NCBI RefSeq assembly: GCF_003334305.1
Contig: NZ_QOWS01000010.1
From: Escherichia coli
Lineage (GTDB): Bacteria; Pseudomonadota; Gammaproteobacteria; Enterobacterales; Enterobacteriaceae
Length of the DNA stretch: 64,000 bases
Direction: 5' to 3' (one strand)
Shown: piece after piece, positions 6,440 through 39,526 of the stretch
Numbering within the stretch: position 1 is the first letter of the stretch
Layout of the letters: each line of letters begins with the position of its first letter
The notes under the pieces: generated by a model
The model's input: only the letters and a program-made list of their open reading frames with translations
The model's database searches: none
Told to the model about the DNA's origin: nothing
Made by a program: the position numbers and the translations under genes

Positions 6440-9400
6440 AAATTCTCAGCCTGCGCCTGAAAAACCTGAACTCATTAAAAGGCGAATGGAAGATTGATTT
6501 CACCCGCGAGCCGTTCGCCAGCAACGGGCTGTTTGCTATTACCGGCCCAACAGGTGCGGGGAAAACCACCCTGCTGGACGCCATTTGTCTGGCGCTGTAT
6601 CACGAAACTCCGCGTCTCTCTAACGTTTCACAATCGCAAAATGATCTCATGACCCGCGATACCGCCGAATGTCTGGCGGAGGTGGAGTTTGAAGTGAAAG
6701 GTGAAGCGTACCGTGCATTCTGGAGCCAGAATCGGGCGCGTAACCAACCCGACGGTAATTTGCAGGTGCCACGCGTAGAGCTGGCGCGCTGCGCCGACGG
6801 CAAAATTCTCGCCGACAAAGTGAAAGATAAGCTGGAACTGACAGCGACGTTAACCGGGCTGGATTACGGGCGCTTCACCCGTTCGATGCTGCTTTCGCAG
6901 GGGCAATTTGCTGCCTTCCTGAATGCCAAACCCAAAGAACGCGCGGAATTGCTCGAGGAGTTAACCGGCACTGAAATCTACGGGCAAATCTCGGCGATGG
7001 TTTTTGAGCAGCACAAATCGGCCCGCACAGAGCTGGAGAAGCTGCAAGCGCAGGCCAGCGGCGTCGCGTTGCTCACGCCGGAACAAGTGCAATCGCTGAC
7101 AGCGAGTTTGCAGGTACTTACTGACGAAGAAAAACAGTTACTTACCGCGCAGCAGCAAGAACAACAATCACTAAACTGGTTAACGCGTCTGGACGAATTG
7201 CAGCAAGAAGCCAGCCGCCGTCAGCAGGCCTTGCAACAGGCGTTAGCCGAAGAAGAAAAAGCGCAACCTCAACTGGCGGCGCTCAGTCTGGCACAACCGG
7301 CACGAAATCTTCGTCCGCACTGGGAACGCATCGCAGAACACAGCGCGGCGCTGGCGCATACTCGCCAGCAGATTGAAGAAGTAAATACTCGCTTACAGAG
7401 CACAATGGCGCTTCGCGCGAGCATTCGCCACCACGCGGCGAATCAGTCAGCAGAATTACAGCAGCAGCAACAAAGCCTGAATACCTGGTTACAGGAACAC
7501 GACCGCTTCCGTCAGTGGAACAACGAACTGGCGGGTTGGCGTGCGCAGTTCTCCCAACAAACCAGCGATCGCGAGCATCTGCGGCAATGGCAGCAACAGT
7601 TAACCCATGCTGAGCAAAAACTTAATACGCTTGCGGCGATCACGTTGACGTTAACCGCCGATGAAGTTGCTAGCGCCCTGGCGCAACATGCCGAGCAACG
7701 CCCACTGCGTCAGCGCCTGGTCGCGCTGCATGGGCAGATTGTTCCCCAACAAAAACGTCTGGCGCAGTTAATGGTCACTATCCAGAATGTCACTCTGGAA
7801 CAGACGCAACGTAATGTCGCACTTAACGAAATGCGCCAGCGTTATAAAGAAAAGACGCAGCAACTTGCCGATGTGAAAACCATTTGCGAGCAGGAAGCGC
7901 GCATCAAAACGCTGGAAGCCCAGCGTGCACAGTTACAGGCGGGTCAGCCTTGTCCACTTTGTGGTTCCACCAGCCATCCGGCGGTCGAGGCGTATCAGGC
8001 GCTGGAGCCTGGCGTTAATCAGTCTCGATTACTGGCGCTGGAAAACGAAGTTAAAAAGCTCGGCGAAGAAGGTGCGGCGCTGCGCGGGCAACTGGATGCA
8101 TTAACGAAGCAGCTTCAGCGCGATGAAAACGAAGCGCAAAGCCTCCGACAAGATGAGCAAGCACTTACTCAACAATGGCAAGCCGTCACGGCCAGCCTCA
8201 ATATCACCTTGCAGCCACAGGACGATATTCAACCGTGGCTGGATGCACAAGATAAGCACGAACGCCAGCTGCGGTTACTCAGCCAACGACATGAATTACA
8301 AGGGCAGATTGCCGCGCATAATCAGCAAATTATCCAGTATCAACAGCAAATTGAACAACGCCAGCAGCAGCTCTTAACGGCATTGGCGGGTTATGCACTG
8401 ACATTGCCACAGGAAGATGAAGAAGAGAGCTGGTTGGCGACACGTCAGCAAGAAGCGCAGAGCTGGCAGCAACGCCAGAACGAATTAACCGCGCTGCAAA
8501 ACCGTATTCAGCAGCTGACGCCGATTCTGGAAACGTTGCCGCAAAGTGATGATCTCCCGCACAGCGAAGAAACTGTGGCGCTGGATAACTGGCGGCAGGT
8601 TCATGAACAATGTCTCGCATTACACAGCCAGCAGCAGACGTTACAGCAACAGGATGTTCTGGCGGCGCAAAGTCTGCAAAAAGCCCAGGCGCAGTTTGAC
8701 ACCGCGCTACAGGCCAGCGTCTTTGACGATCAGCAGGCGTTCCTTGCGGCGCTAATGGATGAACAAACACTAACGCAGCTGGAACAGCTCAAGCAGAATC
8801 TGGAAAACCAGCGCCGTCAGGCGCAAACGCTGGTCACTCAGACAGCAGAAACGCTGGCACAGCATCAACAACACCGACCTGACGGGTTGGCTCTCACTGT
8901 GACGGTGGAGCAGATTCAGCAAGAGTTAGCGCAAACTCACCAAAAGTTGCGTGAAAACACCACGAGTCAAGGCGAGATTCGCCAGCAGCTGAAGCAGGAT
9001 GCAGATAACCGTCAGCAACAACAAACCTTAATGCAGCAAATTGCTCAAATGACGCAGCAGGTTGAGGACTGGGGATATCTGAATTCGCTAATAGGTTCCA
9101 AAGAGGGCGATAAATTCCGCAAGTTTGCCCAGGGGCTGACGCTGGATAATTTAGTCCATCTCGCTAATCAGCAACTTACCCGGCTGCACGGGCGCTATCT
9201 GTTACAGCGCAAAGCCAGCGAGGCGCTGGAAGTCGAGGTTGTTGATACCTGGCAGGCAGATGCGGTACGCGATACCCGTACCCTTTCCGGCGGCGAAAGT
9301 TTCCTCGTTAGTCTGGCGCTGGCGCTGGCGCTTTCGGATCTGGTCAGCCATAAAACACGTATTGACTCGCTGTTCCTTGATGAAGGTTTTGGCACGCTGG

Positions 9401-20698: not shown

Positions 20699-21160
20699 GT
20701 CTGTATTTCCTTATCCAAAGTATGGAGAAGTTAACATTATGTTTCACAACTTCATAGTGTCTGGAAGTATTATTTTTATGACAAAGGAAATACTTTGCGC
20801 AAATATTTTTTGTTTGATTACCAGCGAAACGTTTCTCTTATTTAAATAATTACCCACACAAAATATAGGCTTTTAATTATCAACCTTTATTATAAATAAA
20901 AGTTATGAAATATATTCTCTTCGTTAACTTATAATTAAGAGAAAAAAACTCACCGCATGGCCATTTAAGCCAGGAATAAATTAGCTTCCCGTTCATCATT
21001 TTTGTGATCTTGCGCACATCTTTGAGATAACGCACTTTCTTCACCAGTACGTTGCACGCTTTGTCAGCAGAAGATTGCAACAATCTTTCAGAAGGCCGCG
21101 AATCCCCCGTTTTGTCGTGGTAATGTATGCACTTTGTGTTAGACGGGATAGGTTTTTAAG

Positions 21161-30572: not shown

Positions 30573-31095
30573 TTGTCATCCCTCCTCAGGGACGTAATAA
30601 GTTGATCCATCAATTATCAATGCATAGAAAACATATTATGTTTCGCGCTAACGATTATGCTGCGTTACAGACGAATGGTTCAATTATTCTTTCCCCTAAG
30701 TCCGAATGTGGACATATATAATTTATGGAGAAAAACACGCATCAAATTGATAAAAGGACGATATTTCAACATGTTGCAGATAATGTTATTTTTGATACAT
30801 ACGCGTTATAAATATCAAAAACACAAACCAGATAAATATCTTATCAATATACAACAAAGTTTGAATAATTCAATTTATAGCAGCACAACCAAACGCCAAA
30901 AAATAATAACCAAGAGCTATAAATAAAGATTAAAAATATTTTCAGTGAATATGAAATTATTGCTATTTCTATTACAAAGATGTCCTGGCCTCTCTTCCAT
31001 TCTCTTCTTGTCAACATCGCGACAACTTTCGTAAAACACTCCTGCCCCGCTTCAGGTATACTGTGCACCTTAATTCCACAAACATCAGGCAGACC

Positions 31096-34627: not shown

Positions 34628-35590
34628 TTATTGCACGAAGCGCGAGGTAACGTACTGGCTGTAATCATTCGCTACAGCCGGGACCTTGCCCTGCTCTTTC
34701 AAAAACTGCGCGGTGTCGATGATTGCTTTGTTCACCGGTCCGGTCAGTTCTGCCGTTTGTTGCTGCGGCGTCAGATAGGTATTTCCCTTCACCAGCCCCG
34801 GAACGTCACCTTCAGGCACGCCGCTTAAACGCGCCAGTTTGCTGATGTTTTCCGGCTGTTTCAGCCACGCGTCTGGGTTAGCAATGTACGGTTGCTGAGC
34901 ATCGATGGCGCTTTTAGCGAACGCTTTCACGACCTCAGGATGTTTCTCGGCAAAATCTTTGCGCACCACCCAGACGTCCAGCGTTGGCGCACCCCACTGC
35001 CCGACCTGTTCAGAATCGGTCAACACCTTGCCGTCTTTTTCCAGGGCGTTAACCGCCGGTGCCCAGACATAAGCACCATCAATATCTCCCCGCTGCCAGG
35101 CAGCGATAATCGCGGGCGGCTGCAGGTTCACAATCTCCACTTGCCCGGGTTTAATCCCCCAGTGTTTCAGCGCCGCCAGCAGGCTGTAGTGGGTGGTGGA
35201 GATAAACGGTACGGCGATGCGTTTGCCAATCAGATCTTCCGGTTTGCTGATAGTTTTCTTTACCACCAGCGCTTCGGAGTTACCCAGTTTTGACGCCAGC
35301 AAGAAGACTTCAATCGGCACCTGTTGGCTGGCTGCAACCGCTAATGGGCTGGAACCGAGGTTGCCGATTTGCACGTCGCCAGAAGCCAGCGCCCGCACGA
35401 TGCTGGCTCCGCTGTCAAACTTACGCCAGTCCACGGTTGCTCCGCTTTCTTTAGCAAAGGTGTTGTCGGCCTGAGCCACTTTCGCCGGTTCGGCTGAGGT
35501 TTGATACGCCACGGTGACGTTCACCGCCTGTGCCTGAAAAGCGATGAATGCCAGTGCGGCAAGAAGTGTGTTACGCGATGAAATTGCCAT
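34628..35590 (-). CDS. tauA: Taurine ABC transporter periplasmic binding protein
   Basis: 320 codons from ATG at 35588-35590 (MAISSRNTLLAALAFIAFQAQA signal peptide); GGGGAG-like SD upstream. Confidence 0.9.
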   Translation of the reverse strand: MAISSRNTLLAALAFIAFQAQAVNVTVAYQTSAEPAKVAQADNTFAKESGATVDWRKFDSGASIVRALASGDVQIGNLGSSPLAVAASQQVPIEVFLLASKLGNSEALVVKKTISKPEDLIGKRIAVPFISTTHYSLLAALKHWGIKPGQVEIVNLQPPAIIAAWQRGDIDGAYVWAPAVNALEKDGKVLTDSEQVGQWGAPTLDVWVVRKDFAEKHPEVVKAFAKSAIDAQQPYIANPDAWLKQPENISKLARLSGVPEGDVPGLVKGNTYLTPQQQTAELTGPVNKAIIDTAQFLKEQGKVPAVANDYSQYVTSRFVQ

Positions 35591-36205
35591 GATTGTCTGC
35601 TCCCCTGTCTTGTTATGTGAGCAGTATTCAGGAATAAAAACATTCATTAAAAGAATTAGTCGTTATCGCACAGATGATTTTATTCTTAGCAAAAAAACGG
35701 CAAAGGAAAGATTAAATATGCAATTACTCCGTTCTAACAATTGGGAAAATTACTACACTTCATTTTAGTGATGCATAAACAACCACATTACGAGATTTAT
35801 TACTTCATTATTTCTATCAATATCAATACATATAATAAAACTATTATATTCGCATTGTATATATCACTGTATCATTCTCAATCACTCGCATATTACATTC
35901 ACATAATGTATATAAACAATACTTGTTCACAGAACATATTTTTTAAATGCAATTAATTGACAAACTAAATCACATCTAAATACAATGTATAACACAAAAT
36001 AACTATACATACCAAACATACAAACACTTAACATATGAATTGCATAAAAACATTACCCAGTCGAACCTCCGGGTCTGAAAGCCCTTGCTTTTCAGTTATT
36101 AGCAACATTTAACATTTATAAATTAACATCTGGCTGCGCCAGAGATTACGTCTCTGAGTGCATCGTTGTGCTTGTAGTATAATAAATAAAATGGAGTGTC
36201 ATTAA

Positions 36206-36877
36206 GTGGATAAGGTTTTAGATTCAGCCCTCCTTTCTTCGGCAAATAAAAGAAAGGGTATCCTTGCTATTGGCGCACATCCTGACGATATAGAATTAGG
36301 CTGTGGCGCATCGCTTGCTCGTCTTGCGCAAAAAGGAATTTATATCGCAGCCGTGGTGATGACTACCGGCAACTCTGGTACAGATGGAATAATCGATCGC
36401 CATGAAGAATCGCGCAACGCCCTAAAGATATTAGGGTGCCACCAAACTATTCATCTTAATTTTGCTGACACCCGCGCTCATTTACAGCTCAATGATATGA
36501 TTTCCGCTCTGGAAGACATCATTAAAAATCAAATTCCTTCTGATGTTGAAATCATGCGGGTATATACCATGCATGATGCCGACCGCCATCAGGATCATCT
36601 CGCTGTTTATCAAGCTTCAATGGTTGCCTGCCGCACTATTCCACAAATTCTCGGCTACGAAACCCCAAGTACCTGGCTTTCATTTATGCCTCAGGTTTTT
36701 GAATCCGTTAAAGAAGAATATTTCACAGTCAAACTTGCTGCATTAAAAAAACATAAAAGCCAGGAACGACGCGATTATATGCGTCATGATCGCCTGCGTG
36801 CAGTTGCACAATTTCGCGGGCAACAGGTCAATAGCGATCTGGGTGAAGGCTTTGTAATTCATAAAATGATTCTTTGA
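36206..36877 (+). CDS. yaiS: PIG-L/LmbE family N-acetylglucosaminyl deacetylase-like protein YaiS
   Basis: 223 codons from GTG 36206 (GGAG 9 nt upstream); AHPDD motif near N-terminus and HQDH motif typical of LmbE-like zinc deacetylases. Confidence 0.8.
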   Translation: MDKVLDSALLSSANKRKGILAIGAHPDDIELGCGASLARLAQKGIYIAAVVMTTGNSGTDGIIDRHEESRNALKILGCHQTIHLNFADTRAHLQLNDMISALEDIIKNQIPSDVEIMRVYTMHDADRHQDHLAVYQASMVACRTIPQILGYETPSTWLSFMPQVFESVKEEYFTVKLAALKKHKSQERRDYMRHDRLRAVAQFRGQQVNSDLGEGFVIHKMIL

Positions 36878-36886
36878 GCAAATTGC

Positions 36887-38083
36887 ATGAAAACCTGGAT
36901 ATTTATCTGTATGTCCATAGCAATGTTGCTATGGTTTTTAAGTACGCTAAGACGTAAACCCAGTCAAAAGAAAGGCTGTATTGACGCCATTATACCTGCG
37001 TATAACGAAGGCCCGTGTCTGGCGCAGTCACTGGATAATCTACTGCGTAACCCTTATTTTTGCCGGGTAATTTGCGTTAACGACGGCTCCACGGACAATA
37101 CCGAAGCGGTCATGGCGGAAGTCAAACGCAAATGGGGCGACCGCTTTGTTGCCGTCACGCAAAAAAATACCGGTAAAGGTGGTGCGCTGATGAATGGCCT
37201 CAATTATGCCACCTGCGACCAGGTTTTTTTAAGTGATGCCGACACCTATGTTCCGCCCGATCAAGACGGAATGGGCTATATGCTGGCAGAAATTGAGCGC
37301 GGTGCTGATGCCGTAGGCGGCATTCCCTCTACTGCGTTGAAAGGCGCGGGGCTGTTACCGCACATCCGCGCGACCGTAAAGTTGCCGATGATTGTTATGA
37401 AGCGCACGCTACAGCAGCTCCTGGGCGGCGCACCGTTTATTATCAGCGGTGCCTGCGGAATGTTCCGCACTGATGTATTGCGTAAGTTCGGTTTCTCAGA
37501 TCGTACTAAAGTCGAAGACCTTGATCTCACCTGGACATTAGTGGCAAACGGCTACCGTATTCGGCAGGCGAATCGCTGCATCGTATACCCACAGGAATGC
37601 AACAGCCCGCGTGAGGAGTGGCGTCGCTGGCGGCGTTGGATTGTGGGATACGCGGTCTGTATGCGCCTGCATAAAAGACTTTTATTTAGCCGCTTCGGTA
37701 TCTTCAGTATATTTCCTATGCTGTTGGTTGTGATTTATGGCGTTGGGATTTATCTCACTACCTGGTTTAATGAATTCATCACCACCGGGCCGCATGGTGT
37801 GGTGTTGGCAATGTTTCCGCTTATCTGGATCGGCGTAGTTTGTGTTATTGGTGCTTTTAGCGCCTGGTTTCATCGTTGCTGGTTGTTGGTGCCTTTAGCG
37901 CCGCTTTCCGTTGTGTATGTATTATTAGCTTATGCCATCTGGATTATTTATGGACTTATTGCCTTTTTTACTGGACGCGAACCTCAGCGCGACAAACCCA
38001 CCCGCTATTCCGCACTGGTGGAAGCGTCAACCGCTTATTCCCAACCTTCTGTCACAGGAACTGAAAAACTATCTGAAGCTTAA
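36887..38083 (+). CDS. yaiP: Membrane-anchored family 2 glycosyltransferase YaiP
   Basis: 398-aa ORF; N-terminal TM helix, GT2 core (IIPAYNEG, DAD), RRWRRW motif, several C-terminal hydrophobic helices. Confidence 0.85.
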   Translation: MKTWIFICMSIAMLLWFLSTLRRKPSQKKGCIDAIIPAYNEGPCLAQSLDNLLRNPYFCRVICVNDGSTDNTEAVMAEVKRKWGDRFVAVTQKNTGKGGALMNGLNYATCDQVFLSDADTYVPPDQDGMGYMLAEIERGADAVGGIPSTALKGAGLLPHIRATVKLPMIVMKRTLQQLLGGAPFIISGACGMFRTDVLRKFGFSDRTKVEDLDLTWTLVANGYRIRQANRCIVYPQECNSPREEWRRWRRWIVGYAVCMRLHKRLLFSRFGIFSIFPMLLVVIYGVGIYLTTWFNEFITTGPHGVVLAMFPLIWIGVVCVIGAFSAWFHRCWLLVPLAPLSVVYVLLAYAIWIIYGLIAFFTGREPQRDKPTRYSALVEASTAYSQPSVTGTEKLSEA

Positions 38084-38642
38084 TGTTAAAGAGAAAAATA
38101 TTCAGATTGCAGACCAGGTAATTATTGATGAAACTGCAGGTGAAGTTGTTATCGGCGCGAATACCCGTATTTGTCATGGTGCCGTTATTCAGGGTCCGGT
38201 AGTAATTGGCGCAAACTGCCTGATAGGTAATTATGCGTTTATTCGTCCTGGCACAATAATCAGCAATGGTGTAAAAATTGGTTTTGCCACCGAAATTAAA
38301 AATGCGGTTATTGAAGCGGAAGCAACGATTGGTCCGCAATGTTTTATTGCCGACTCGGTAGTTGCAAACCAGGCATATTTGGGCGCACAAGTACGTACCA
38401 GTAATCATCGTCTGGATGAACAGCCTGTGTCTGTTCGAACTCCAGAGGGAATTATCGCTACCGGATGCGATAAATTAGGTTGTTATATCGGGCAGCGTTC
38501 ACGCCTTGGCGTACAAGTTATAATTTTGCCTGGGCGAATTATTTCCCCGAACACGCAACTTGGCCCGCGCGTGATTGTAGAACGTAATTTACCTGCCGGA
38601 ACTTATTCACTCCGACAAGAACTTATCCGTACAGGAGATTAA
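37932..38642 (+). CDS. yaiX: Hexapeptide-repeat (left-handed beta-helix) acyl/acetyltransferase YaiX; start uncertain
   Basis: Repeated [LIV]GxxxxI hexapeptides (IGANTRICHGAVIQGPVVIGANCLIGNYAFIRPG...); frame overlaps yaiP 3' end by 152 nt and no ATG/GTG/TTG lies in frame downstream of the yaiP stop. Confidence 0.65.
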   Translation: MPSGLFMDLLPFLLDANLSATNPPAIPHWWKRQPLIPNLLSQELKNYLKLNVKEKNIQIADQVIIDETAGEVVIGANTRICHGAVIQGPVVIGANCLIGNYAFIRPGTIISNGVKIGFATEIKNAVIEAEATIGPQCFIADSVVANQAYLGAQVRTSNHRLDEQPVSVRTPEGIIATGCDKLGCYIGQRSRLGVQVIILPGRIISPNTQLGPRVIVERNLPAGTYSLRQELIRTGD

Positions 38643-38643
38643 A

Positions 38644-39417
38644 ATGATAAAACGGACGTTATTAGCGGCGGCCATTTTTAGCGCATTGCCCGCTTATGCC
38701 GGGTTAACTTCCATTACCGCGGGCTACGATTTTACCGATTATTCTGGCGATCATGGCAACCGTAATTTAGCGTATGCTGAACTGGTGGCGAAAGTTGAAA
38801 ACGCAACGCTGCTTTTTAATCTTTCCCAGGGGCGTCGTGATTATGAAACTGAACATTTCAATGCCACTCGCGGTCAGGGTGCGGTCTGGTATAAATGGAA
38901 TAACTGGCTGACAACCCGAACGGGTATTGCCTTTGCGGATAATACGCCGGTCTTTGCCCGCCAGGATTTTCGTCAGGATATTAACCTGGCCCTGTTGCCA
39001 AAAACGCTTTTCACGACCGGTTATCGCTACACTAAATATTACGATGATGTCGAAGTCGATGCCTGGCAAGGCGGCGTATCACTCTATACTGGCCCGGTGA
39101 TCACCAGCTACCGCTATACCCATTATGACTCCAGCGATGCAGGTGGTAGTTATAGCAATATGATTTCCGTGCGTCTGAATGACCCGCGCGGCACTGGTTA
39201 TACGCAACTATGGCTAAGCCGCGGAACAGGCGCTTACACCTATGACTGGACGCCAGAAACACGCTACGGCAGCATGAAGAGCGTCAGTCTGCAACGTATT
39301 CAACCGCTGACTGAGCAACTTAATCTCGGGCTGACGGCAGGTAAAGTGTGGTACGACACCCCAACCGATGATTATAACGGTCTGCAACTTGCAGCCCATC
39401 TGACCTGGAAATTCTGA
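38644..39417 (+). CDS. yaiO: Outer-membrane beta-barrel protein YaiO
   Basis: 257-aa ORF, signal peptide (…ALPAYA|G), alternating amphipathic strands, C-terminal …LTWKF; AGGAG SD; ATG one nt after yaiX stop. Confidence 0.88.
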   Translation: MIKRTLLAAAIFSALPAYAGLTSITAGYDFTDYSGDHGNRNLAYAELVAKVENATLLFNLSQGRRDYETEHFNATRGQGAVWYKWNNWLTTRTGIAFADNTPVFARQDFRQDINLALLPKTLFTTGYRYTKYYDDVEVDAWQGGVSLYTGPVITSYRYTHYDSSDAGGSYSNMISVRLNDPRGTGYTQLWLSRGTGAYTYDWTPETRYGSMKSVSLQRIQPLTEQLNLGLTAGKVWYDTPTDDYNGLQLAAHLTWKF

Positions 39418-39526
39418 TTCCTTCTGCCGCCCGCTATCCGGGGCGGCCTTCCCTGCCGATTAGCCCCCCCCTTTCCTCTTTGTTTTCCGACCACATTCAC
39501 CGGATAAATTTTATTCTCCAGTGTTA

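Follow-up and report, generated by a model that had tools for sequence, protein, structure and literature searches.

The 64,000-nucleotide stretch of Escherichia coli DNA analysed here (the window) runs in reverse orientation relative to MG1655 and contains the divergent spacer between tauA and the yaiSPXO genes. This spacer measures 615 bp, as does its K-12 counterpart, from which it differs at 7 of 615 positions with no indels. Strain A7 matches the window at 100% of positions 35400–36400, and K-12 at about 98%. The products of yaiSPXO are a PIG-L deacetylase, a PgaC/IcaA-like GT2 glycosyltransferase, a hexapeptide acetyltransferase, and an outer-membrane beta-barrel. The landmarks of the locus are as follows.

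35591–36205, unstranded: whole tauA/yaiS spacer, GC 0.301 (69.9% A+T)
35590, minus strand: start codon of tauA (ATG)
36206, plus strand: start codon of yaiS (GTG)
36206–39417, plus strand: tightly packed yaiS-yaiP-yaiX-yaiO cassette, with gaps or overlaps between the genes of 9, −23, and 1 bp
35629–39499, unstranded: replaced segment, missing from O157-type and A21 alleles

The yaiSPXO genes are an accessory, horizontally acquired cassette. In O157:H7-type strains, an island with a response regulator, a MASE1 kinase, uhpC, and afuABC lies beyond tauA instead (451 genomes with the full 302-bp spacer), and in another strain the afu island is found at a different locus, with an integrase as its neighbour. 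Strain A21 contains an "empty site" in which tauA is followed by a 305-bp spacer (GC 0.416, REP-like sequence) and then by frmR. The O157 and A21 alleles are homologous to the K-12 type up to 35628 and again from 39500 onwards, which sets the limits of the replaced segment listed above. In Citrobacter sp. FP75, yaiSPXO occurs at 78% nucleotide identity between unrelated neighbours on either side, with homology whose ends coincide exactly with the start codon of yaiS and the stop codon of yaiO. The upstream spacer in this strain (412 bp, GC 0.35) cannot be aligned with that of E. coli, as their local alignment scores the same as shuffled sequences do on average. In the two cassettes, third codon positions are 54–58% identical, which means that neutral DNA is saturated, and therefore this pair cannot distinguish imported AT-rich DNA from AT-rich DNA that arose in situ. 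The next-best YaiS homologue, from Stenotrophomonas, is 48% identical. The neighbouring gene or genes of the spacer have also been called foreign by three predictors (PMC3661553).

With respect to base composition, the spacer is the most AT-rich 615-bp segment of the window. Its GC content is 0.301, whereas the window as a whole has 0.517 and coding sequence 0.527, in line with the original prediction of a strongly AT-rich leader. Equally GC-poor 615-bp windows make up 0.09% of the 64 kb, and every one of them overlaps this spacer. The core (35744–36052) has a GC content of 0.243 (75.7% A+T), with a minimum of 0.225–0.24 at about 35750–36050. The A+T content is also elevated relative to other intergenic DNA. 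The closest genome has 41 annotated intergenic regions that reach 30 bp or more (GC 0.447 on average, sd 0.074). Of these, the tauA/yaiS spacer is the longest and ranks third lowest in GC, or lowest if just those of 200 bp or more are counted. The next GC-poor long region is the hemB/ehaB spacer (523 bp, GC 0.338); the other low-GC runners-up are two short spacers flanking iraP. Long A/T tracts had been predicted as well and are indeed dense, with 28 A-tracts in the spacer versus a window mean of 11.4 per 615 bp (top 0.3%). TATA, ATAC, and CATA motifs occur as described, but do not qualify as repeats: their counts match a first-order Markov expectation (|z| ≤ 1.2), which makes them an effect of composition. 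A search of the spacer by repeat finding, TRF, and k-mer enrichment returned no notable tandem or dispersed family beyond dinucleotide composition.

Conservation is distributed as a mosaic. Diversity (π) was computed from six alleles covering the E. coli range, and the resulting segments, together with the sequence elements that they contain, are listed here.

35591–35718, minus strand: putative tau control region, recognized by conservation, with leader, −10-like element, and candidate upstream activator sites; π 0.022
35628–35623, minus strand: −10-like AATACT, putative tau promoter element
35647–35659, minus strand: block TAAAnGAATTA, common to K-12-type and O157/A21-type alleles
35683–35710, minus strand: block TTTAGnAAAAAAnCGGCAAnGG, kept between K-12-type and O157/A21-type tau alleles; candidate Cbl/CysB site
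35719–35815: hypervariable stretch, in which allele classes diverge by about 26% and a 9-bp indel occurs; π 0.22
35816–35940: island core; π 0.12
35941–36035: distal-promoter block; π 0.059
36036–36160: GC-richer hairpin zone; π 0.154
36055–36074, minus strand: weak terminator-like inverted repeat in this GC-richer, poorly conserved zone
36129–36156, unstranded: two overlapping 6-bp palindromes, TCTGGC-TGC-GCCAGA and CAGAGA-TTACG-TCTCTG
36161–36205, plus strand: yaiS-proximal region with TATAAT and Shine-Dalgarno sequence; π 0.024
36178–36183, plus strand: proximal TATAAT
36193–36196, plus strand: Shine-Dalgarno GGAG, 9 nt before the yaiS GTG

Conservation within the spacer is highest in the 128 bp next to tauA, where diversity is 0.022 versus 0.032 for the tauA coding sequence. 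In an alignment of the upstream alleles over 35629 to about 35710, K-12-type and O157/A21-type sequences are about 60% alike aside from the two kept blocks at 35647–35659 and 35683–35710. Judged by sequence, these blocks may represent tau promoter and Cbl/CysB elements. This high conservation, partly retained in otherwise unrelated alleles, supports the expectation that the tau promoter lies within the spacer. In the 1997 work of van der Ploeg, the Cbl footprint at the tau promoter reportedly spans −112 to −68. This range would fit a tauA transcription start that we take to be near 35616, downstream of the −10-like AATACT. A comparison of the tau and ssuE upstream regions for a common Cbl motif gave just scattered AT-rich 11-mers at inconsistent positions, and a literature search by phrase on the tau promoter of E. 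coli yielded only Sinorhizobium and neuroscience papers. At the other end of the spacer, the palindrome CAGAGA-TTACG-TCTCTG is nearly invariant and adjoins the −35 position of the proximal −10-like element. By eye, we saw no covariation in the inverted repeat at 36055–36074 among the six alleles.

The AT core between these ends is present as a single copy in 4303 of 5426 complete genomes. Its sequence identity is bimodal, with 3261 genomes at 95% or above and 1038 at 80–90%. Between these two allele classes, the core is identical at a fraction of 0.833, compared with 0.824 for third codon positions of yaiS, and it therefore drifts at the neutral rate. Both classes nonetheless have a core GC content of 0.24–0.26, with balanced changes in the two directions (33 W>S vs 31 S>W). 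Some strains carry IS elements inserted in the spacer.

H-NS occupancy in K-12 and RNA polymerase binding in vitro have been documented before. Panyukov and Ozoline (2013, PMC3661553) listed the yaiS(−)/tauA(+) spacer as 1 of 78 E. coli "promoter islands", which are defined as regions of 300 bp or more in which predicted start points (PlatProm) are extremely dense. The published features, and the mapped or predicted promoters that they contain, correspond to these positions in the window.

35744–36052, unstranded: promoter island 383994_309 (U00096.2; PMC3661553, Table 1)
35847–35996, unstranded: P12 fragment of Fuqua and Wagner (2024, PMC11661796), 148 of 150 bases identical
35854–35881, minus strand: tauA-directed promoter-like sequence TTGAGA-16-TACAAT, prediction only
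35957–35986, plus strand: distal yaiS-directed sigma-70 promoter TTGACA-18-TACAAT, with 11 of 12 consensus positions and published mutagenesis

The island nearly coincides with the stretch singled out by the original prediction (35750–36060). Its 75.7% A+T, and the 69.9% of the whole spacer, agree with the high A+T content of this class (mean 71.2%, PMC3661553). By a simple scan, which is not PlatProm, promoter-like and −10-like sites occur in the spacer at about five times the window-average density. The counts of −10-like sites and of full promoter-like sites both equal the Markov-1 (composition-matched) expectation. The AT-rich composition thus accounts for the dense −10- and −35-like motifs, and probably for the binding of RNA polymerase and H-NS.

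An RpoD-holoenzyme peak was detected in the tauA/yaiS spacer by in vitro genomic SELEX, and TTGACA-18-TACAAT and TTGAGA-16-TACAAT were predicted as promoters of yaiS and tauA, respectively (Shimada 2014, PMC3946193). These hexamer pairs are also the two best matches of our own consensus scan. Fuqua and Wagner (PMC11661796) examined the 150-bp fragment P12 by two-colour reporter assays and saturation mutagenesis. The two differences between P12 and the window are both K-12 versus window polymorphisms. The bottom strand of this fragment (P12-RFP), which is the yaiS-sense strand, contains an active promoter that mutagenesis assigned to a −35/−10 pair with TACAAT as the −10 box (PMC11661796). On the P12 sequence this pair corresponds to TTGACA/TACAAT. 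Scrambling of the boxes reduced P12-RFP output by 62.6-fold and 49.7-fold, and the tauA-sense strand (P12-GFP) showed zero promoter activity in the reporter (PMC11661796). The predicted tauA-directed site at 35854–35881 lies on this inactive strand. Transcription from the distal yaiS promoter is expected to start near 35993, which would leave a 5′ leader of about 212 nt. Allele P276M contains a 2-bp insertion between the −35 and −10 boxes of this promoter, which is therefore not strictly conserved. An RpoS-holoenzyme SELEX peak (Shimada 2017, PMC5493296) maps near 36178. With a catalogued promoter island and a mapped sigma-70 promoter facing yaiS (PMC11661796), the description of this region as a complex promoter appears justified.

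The predicted binding of H-NS is likewise supported, as far as the K-12 allele is concerned, with its 7 differences from the window in 615 positions mentioned above. The spacer is H-NS-bound in three of three ChIP-chip datasets (Grainger, Kahramanoglou, Oshima) according to the compilation in PMC3661553, from which we take this K-12 occupancy evidence, and it was flagged as an H-NS genomic-SELEX site (Shimada 2014, PMC3946193). The nucleation motif TCGATAAATT is not enriched: allowing up to two mismatches, we found 2 matches in the spacer versus 1.8 ± 1.4 in composition-matched shuffles. This high-affinity motif is not obligatory for H-NS binding. Because the densities of promoter-like sites and of H-NS motifs equal the expectation from composition, the spacer may bind H-NS simply through its AT-richness, without having been selected for this role. 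In a plasmid reporter, P12-RFP output increased about 1.5-fold in Δhns cells (p = 4e-10), and loss of either of two H-NS motifs in P12 also led to higher expression (PMC11661796). The Δhns effect is modest and, being measured on a plasmid, might include trans effects. Since the reporter shows activity of the distal promoter even when H-NS is there, silencing at this level is at best partial. From these data we infer that the H-NS-coated spacer keeps native yaiSPXO largely silent. We know of no counter-silencer for this cassette. A literature search for H-NS together with tauABCD, or for yaiP or yaiO together with hns, returned nothing specific.

Taken together, we consider it likely that the spacer is a composite divergent control region made of a tau module, an AT-rich block that binds H-NS and RNA polymerase, and a proximal yaiS start region. 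The tauA-proximal ~128 bp (35591–35718) would contain the sulfate-starvation tau promoter with sites for LysR-type activators, and would be held by purifying selection. The central ~440 bp (35719–36160), which are AT-rich, and very much so over the first ~330 bp up to about 36050 (GC ~0.25), would bind RNA polymerase and H-NS through base composition; sequence-specific constraint in this block would be limited, as far as we could detect, to the one sigma-70 promoter facing yaiS. H-NS coating would dampen this promoter and may, by extension, hold yaiSPXO largely silent. The last ~45 bp (36161–36205) would serve as a conserved proximal start region for yaiS.

A different view is that the AT-rich core is a neutral by-product, unconstrained and at compositional equilibrium, that was inherited with a low-GC foreign cassette or produced by AT-biased mutation, and that the binding of H-NS and RNA polymerase is incidental. 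Several observations are in line with this view: divergence of the core matches that of synonymous sites in the cassette (identity 0.833 vs 0.824), W>S and S>W changes are balanced, and the numbers of −10-like, promoter-like, and H-NS motifs equal the Markov-1 expectation. Moreover, some strains carry IS insertions in the core at no evident cost, and the Citrobacter FP75 spacer is AT-rich yet unalignable. On the other hand, the two allele classes, although 17% divergent, both retain a GC content of 0.24–0.26 and a strong strand asymmetry, and the distal-promoter block is functional, responsive to H-NS, and conserved about three times as well as the sequence around it. We regard a purely neutral core as possible, although we lean against it. 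This view is largely compatible with the composite control region, as it contests selection and not mechanism.

The strand asymmetry deserves separate consideration. It is most pronounced in the following stretch.

35960–36059, plus strand: the most extreme C>G skew anywhere in the 64 kb, with 22 C and 3 G on the yaiS-sense strand

This stretch begins at the −35 box of the distal promoter and ends about 65 nt beyond the expected start, so that leader RNA would include its 3′ part. G is scarcest over 35746–36045, where it makes up 5.7% of the yaiS-sense strand. The skew is kept in both allele classes, which are 17% apart, and is absent from the upstream region in Citrobacter FP75. Neither the H-NS/promoter-island reading nor the neutral reading explains this skew. 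One alternative is that the ~212-nt leader, which is A/C-rich, G-poor, and unstructured, serves for loading of Rho, so that most transcription ends before yaiS. In this case two coupled layers would restrain yaiSPXO, with H-NS acting at initiation and Rho within the 212-nt leader, and expression would need relief of both. The extreme skew (22:3), the minimal G content, their retention in both allele classes, and an RNA without significant structure (z = −1.06) are what such a leader would look like. However, skew alone is a weak predictor in DNA with 75% A+T, where the counts of C and G are small, the Citrobacter FP75 region lacks the skew, and no accessible paper ties yaiS to Rho or bicyclomycin. 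We consider a Rho-loading leader plausible but unlikely.

The original prediction had also portrayed the A/T tracts as typical of curved DNA, and intrinsically curved upstream DNA could act architecturally on the tau or yaiS promoters. The dense A-tracts are suggestive of this possibility, and promoter islands as a class are somewhat more curved than other DNA (Panyukov and Ozoline 2013, PMC3661553). In the tauA/yaiS spacer, though, the A-tracts are unphased: an AA/TT periodogram showed no 10–11.5-bp phasing, and 94% of shuffles scored higher. In three wedge models, the outcome of which is indicative only, the mean predicted curvature of the spacer equals the window mean (40th–58th percentile). 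Locally, predicted curvature exceeds the 95th percentile of the window at two or three peaks (near 35696, 35746, and 36042). The claim of curved DNA is thus not supported for the spacer, and an architectural role of curvature appears very improbable.

A hidden small RNA, riboswitch, small protein, or mobile-element relic is hardly credible: the long spacer with its strong promoter and 212-nt leader is the kind for which Shimada (2014, PMC3946193) advises a check for small RNAs, but an Rfam scan of both strands over 35000–37000 gave zero matches at E ≤ 1, the leader fold is not significant (z = −1.06), the open reading frames in the spacer are just short and of low complexity, and the sequence is single copy per genome with high turnover. 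Among E. coli genomes and plasmids, we found no similarity to the spacer outside its own locus; the "plasmid" matches are the same chromosomal locus in mislabelled, megabase-size records.

The features of this spacer and most of their interpretation have largely been published before (PMC3661553, PMC3946193, PMC11661796). What the present analysis adds is the constraint on the tau-proximal 128 bp, the AT core that evolves at a neutral rate with held composition, and the extent of the accessory segment (35629–39499). As a discovery this matters little; the value of the locus is that of a clean worked example. One site exists in three natural states, with the yai cassette and its AT-rich spacer, with the afu/uhpC island and a spacer of normal GC, or empty, which implies that the tau promoter works with and without an adjacent H-NS-coated block. 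The site therefore offers a natural experiment on whether H-NS-coated blocks insulate a neighbouring core operon or leak onto it. It also illustrates that the "promoter island" properties at tauA/yaiS reduce to base composition.

Comparison with known systems places the locus as follows. In its gene content, yaiSPXO resembles the pgaABCD/icaADBC loci, since the best NCBIfam match of its GT2 glycosyltransferase is PgaC/IcaA and the cassette also codes for a deacetylase and an outer-membrane beta-barrel. However, all scores are far under the family cut-offs, the deacetylase is of the PIG-L type and not of the CE4 type of PgaB/IcaB, and there is an additional hexapeptide acetyltransferase. This is resemblance only, not membership.

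The spacer also shares features with systems under xenogeneic silencing (Navarre 2006; Oshima 2006; Lucchini 2006). As in those systems, an AT-rich, H-NS-occupied spacer precedes a patchily distributed accessory cassette, and a promoter inside the spacer is partly derepressed in Δhns cells. A difference is that the coding regions of yaiSPXO are just mildly GC-poor (0.44–0.50). The spacer also belongs to the published list of promoter islands (Shavkunov 2009; Panyukov and Ozoline 2013; Purtov 2014; Bykov 2020), with which it has in common ~71–76% A+T, many promoter-like sites, binding of RNA polymerase and H-NS, and foreign neighbours. Unlike the "transcriptionally defective" stereotype of this class, the 150-bp core at tauA/yaiS has one clearly active promoter. 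Motif density at tauA/yaiS is wholly accounted for by base composition, and we see no categorical difference from the class.

Another parallel is the spacer between ssuE and elfA. It has no convincing motif in common with the tau spacer, and the neighbour is fimbrial and not polysaccharide-related. This 355-bp divergent spacer (GC 0.27) also serves a Cbl-dependent operon for sulfonate sulfur, and it is likewise on the promoter-island list and bound by H-NS (PMC3661553). Like tauA/yaiS, it separates an operon activated by Cbl from a surface-structure operon with poor expression.

The four genes on the yaiS side of the AT-rich tauA/yaiS spacer (35591-36205) are arranged as follows:

36206-39417, plus strand: yaiS-yaiP-yaiX-yaiO cassette, with intergenic distances of 9, -23 and 1 bp.

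They encode a PIG-L deacetylase, a GT2 protein (best match PgaC/IcaA), a hexapeptide acetyltransferase and the YaiO outer-membrane barrel. Judged by this gene content, yaiSPXO looks like a compact surface-polysaccharide cassette, a prediction to be read with family cut-offs that lie far above the scores of every enzyme in the set. The same four genes occur in Citrobacter sp. FP75 (locus L011, 6001-9212) with 78% nucleotide identity to those of E. coli, and the homology between the two species is bounded by the start codon of yaiS on one side and the stop codon of yaiO on the other. The neighborhood of the Citrobacter cassette differs, with a cytochrome c peroxidase-like gene and a trehalase gene upstream and a fimbrial subunit gene downstream. 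After Citrobacter, the best relative of YaiS among the matches listed is a Stenotrophomonas protein (48% identical).

Within E. coli, the site between tauA and frmR (window 35629-39499; comparison loci L003, L009 and L010) exists in three states:

State 1: the yai cassette.
State 2: a response-regulator/MASE1-kinase/uhpC/afuABC island.
State 3: empty, with a 305-bp spacer that contains a REP-like element.

Outside the 38 bp that directly precede the ATG, the tau promoter regions of the K-12 type and the O157/A21 type share only about 60% identity. In some strains insertion sequences have interrupted or deleted the AT-rich spacer, as seen in loci L006 (about 6628-7900) and L007 (6156-6940). One such allele carries ISVsa5 (IS4 family) near the equivalent of window position 36033, and in another an IS1-associated deletion has removed the tauA start, the spacer and yaiS.

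The window contains a full-length yaiS reading frame of 223 amino acids (36206-36877, plus strand), which is also intact in A7, Z0117 and Citrobacter. The PIG-L/BshB1 profile matches this 223-residue YaiS from end to end. In K-12 (locus L001, 8060-8617), a nonsense change from CAG to TAG introduces Q186stop, and because of this stop codon the annotated K-12 product comprises only 185 residues. PGAP labels the intact gene in several genomes as "incomplete, missing C-terminus", a flag that appears to be an artefact of annotation. The small reading frame ykiC (36743-36862, minus strand) overlaps the 3' end of yaiS in antisense orientation, and the closest genomes list its product as a hypothetical protein; this small ORF reportedly (VanOrsdel, 2018) encodes 39 amino acids.

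Base composition and symmetry single out several parts of the spacer:

35960-36059, plus strand: strongest C>G strand skew within the 64-kb window.
35746-36045, plus strand: lowest G content within the 64-kb window.
35632-35643 / 35674-35685: inverted repeat with 12-nt arms that are 92% complementary and separated by 30 nt, in the conserved tau control region.
36140-36156: nearly invariant palindrome CAGAGA-TTACG-TCTCTG, overlapped by a second palindrome at 36129-36143.

Both the skew and the G-poverty are kept in the two allele classes of the AT-rich core, and this skewed, G-poor region may be a rut-like leader located downstream of the distal promoter mapped at 35957-35986 (plus strand). At the place equivalent to the 12-nt inverted repeat, the O157-type allele carries another palindrome, CTTTGTTCTTAACAAG; either element could be a regulator site. 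The CAGAGA-TTACG-TCTCTG palindrome is surrounded by a variable stretch and adjoins the -35 position that goes with TATAAT, the proximal -10-like element at 36178-36183; it could act as an operator.

Around the tauA/yaiS spacer the window is identical to strain A7 (loci L004 and L005), though not over its full length: a position-by-position comparison fails, which implies indels elsewhere. Two further intergenic regions of the window are markedly AT-rich, the hemB/ehaB-type autotransporter intergenic region (30573-31095, 523 bp, GC 0.338) and the region upstream of iraP (20699-20879, 181 bp, GC 0.287), with coordinates taken from A7 that indels may shift in the window. The other Cbl-activated sulfonate-sulfur operon, ssuEADCB, shares its spacer with a cryptic fimbrial operon. 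Comparison of the tau spacer with this ssuE/elfA spacer revealed no shared motif. In MG1655 the ssuE/elfA spacer (locus L094, 1014-1368) measures 355 bp with a GC content of 0.27, and it is a listed promoter island bound by H-NS (PMC3661553).
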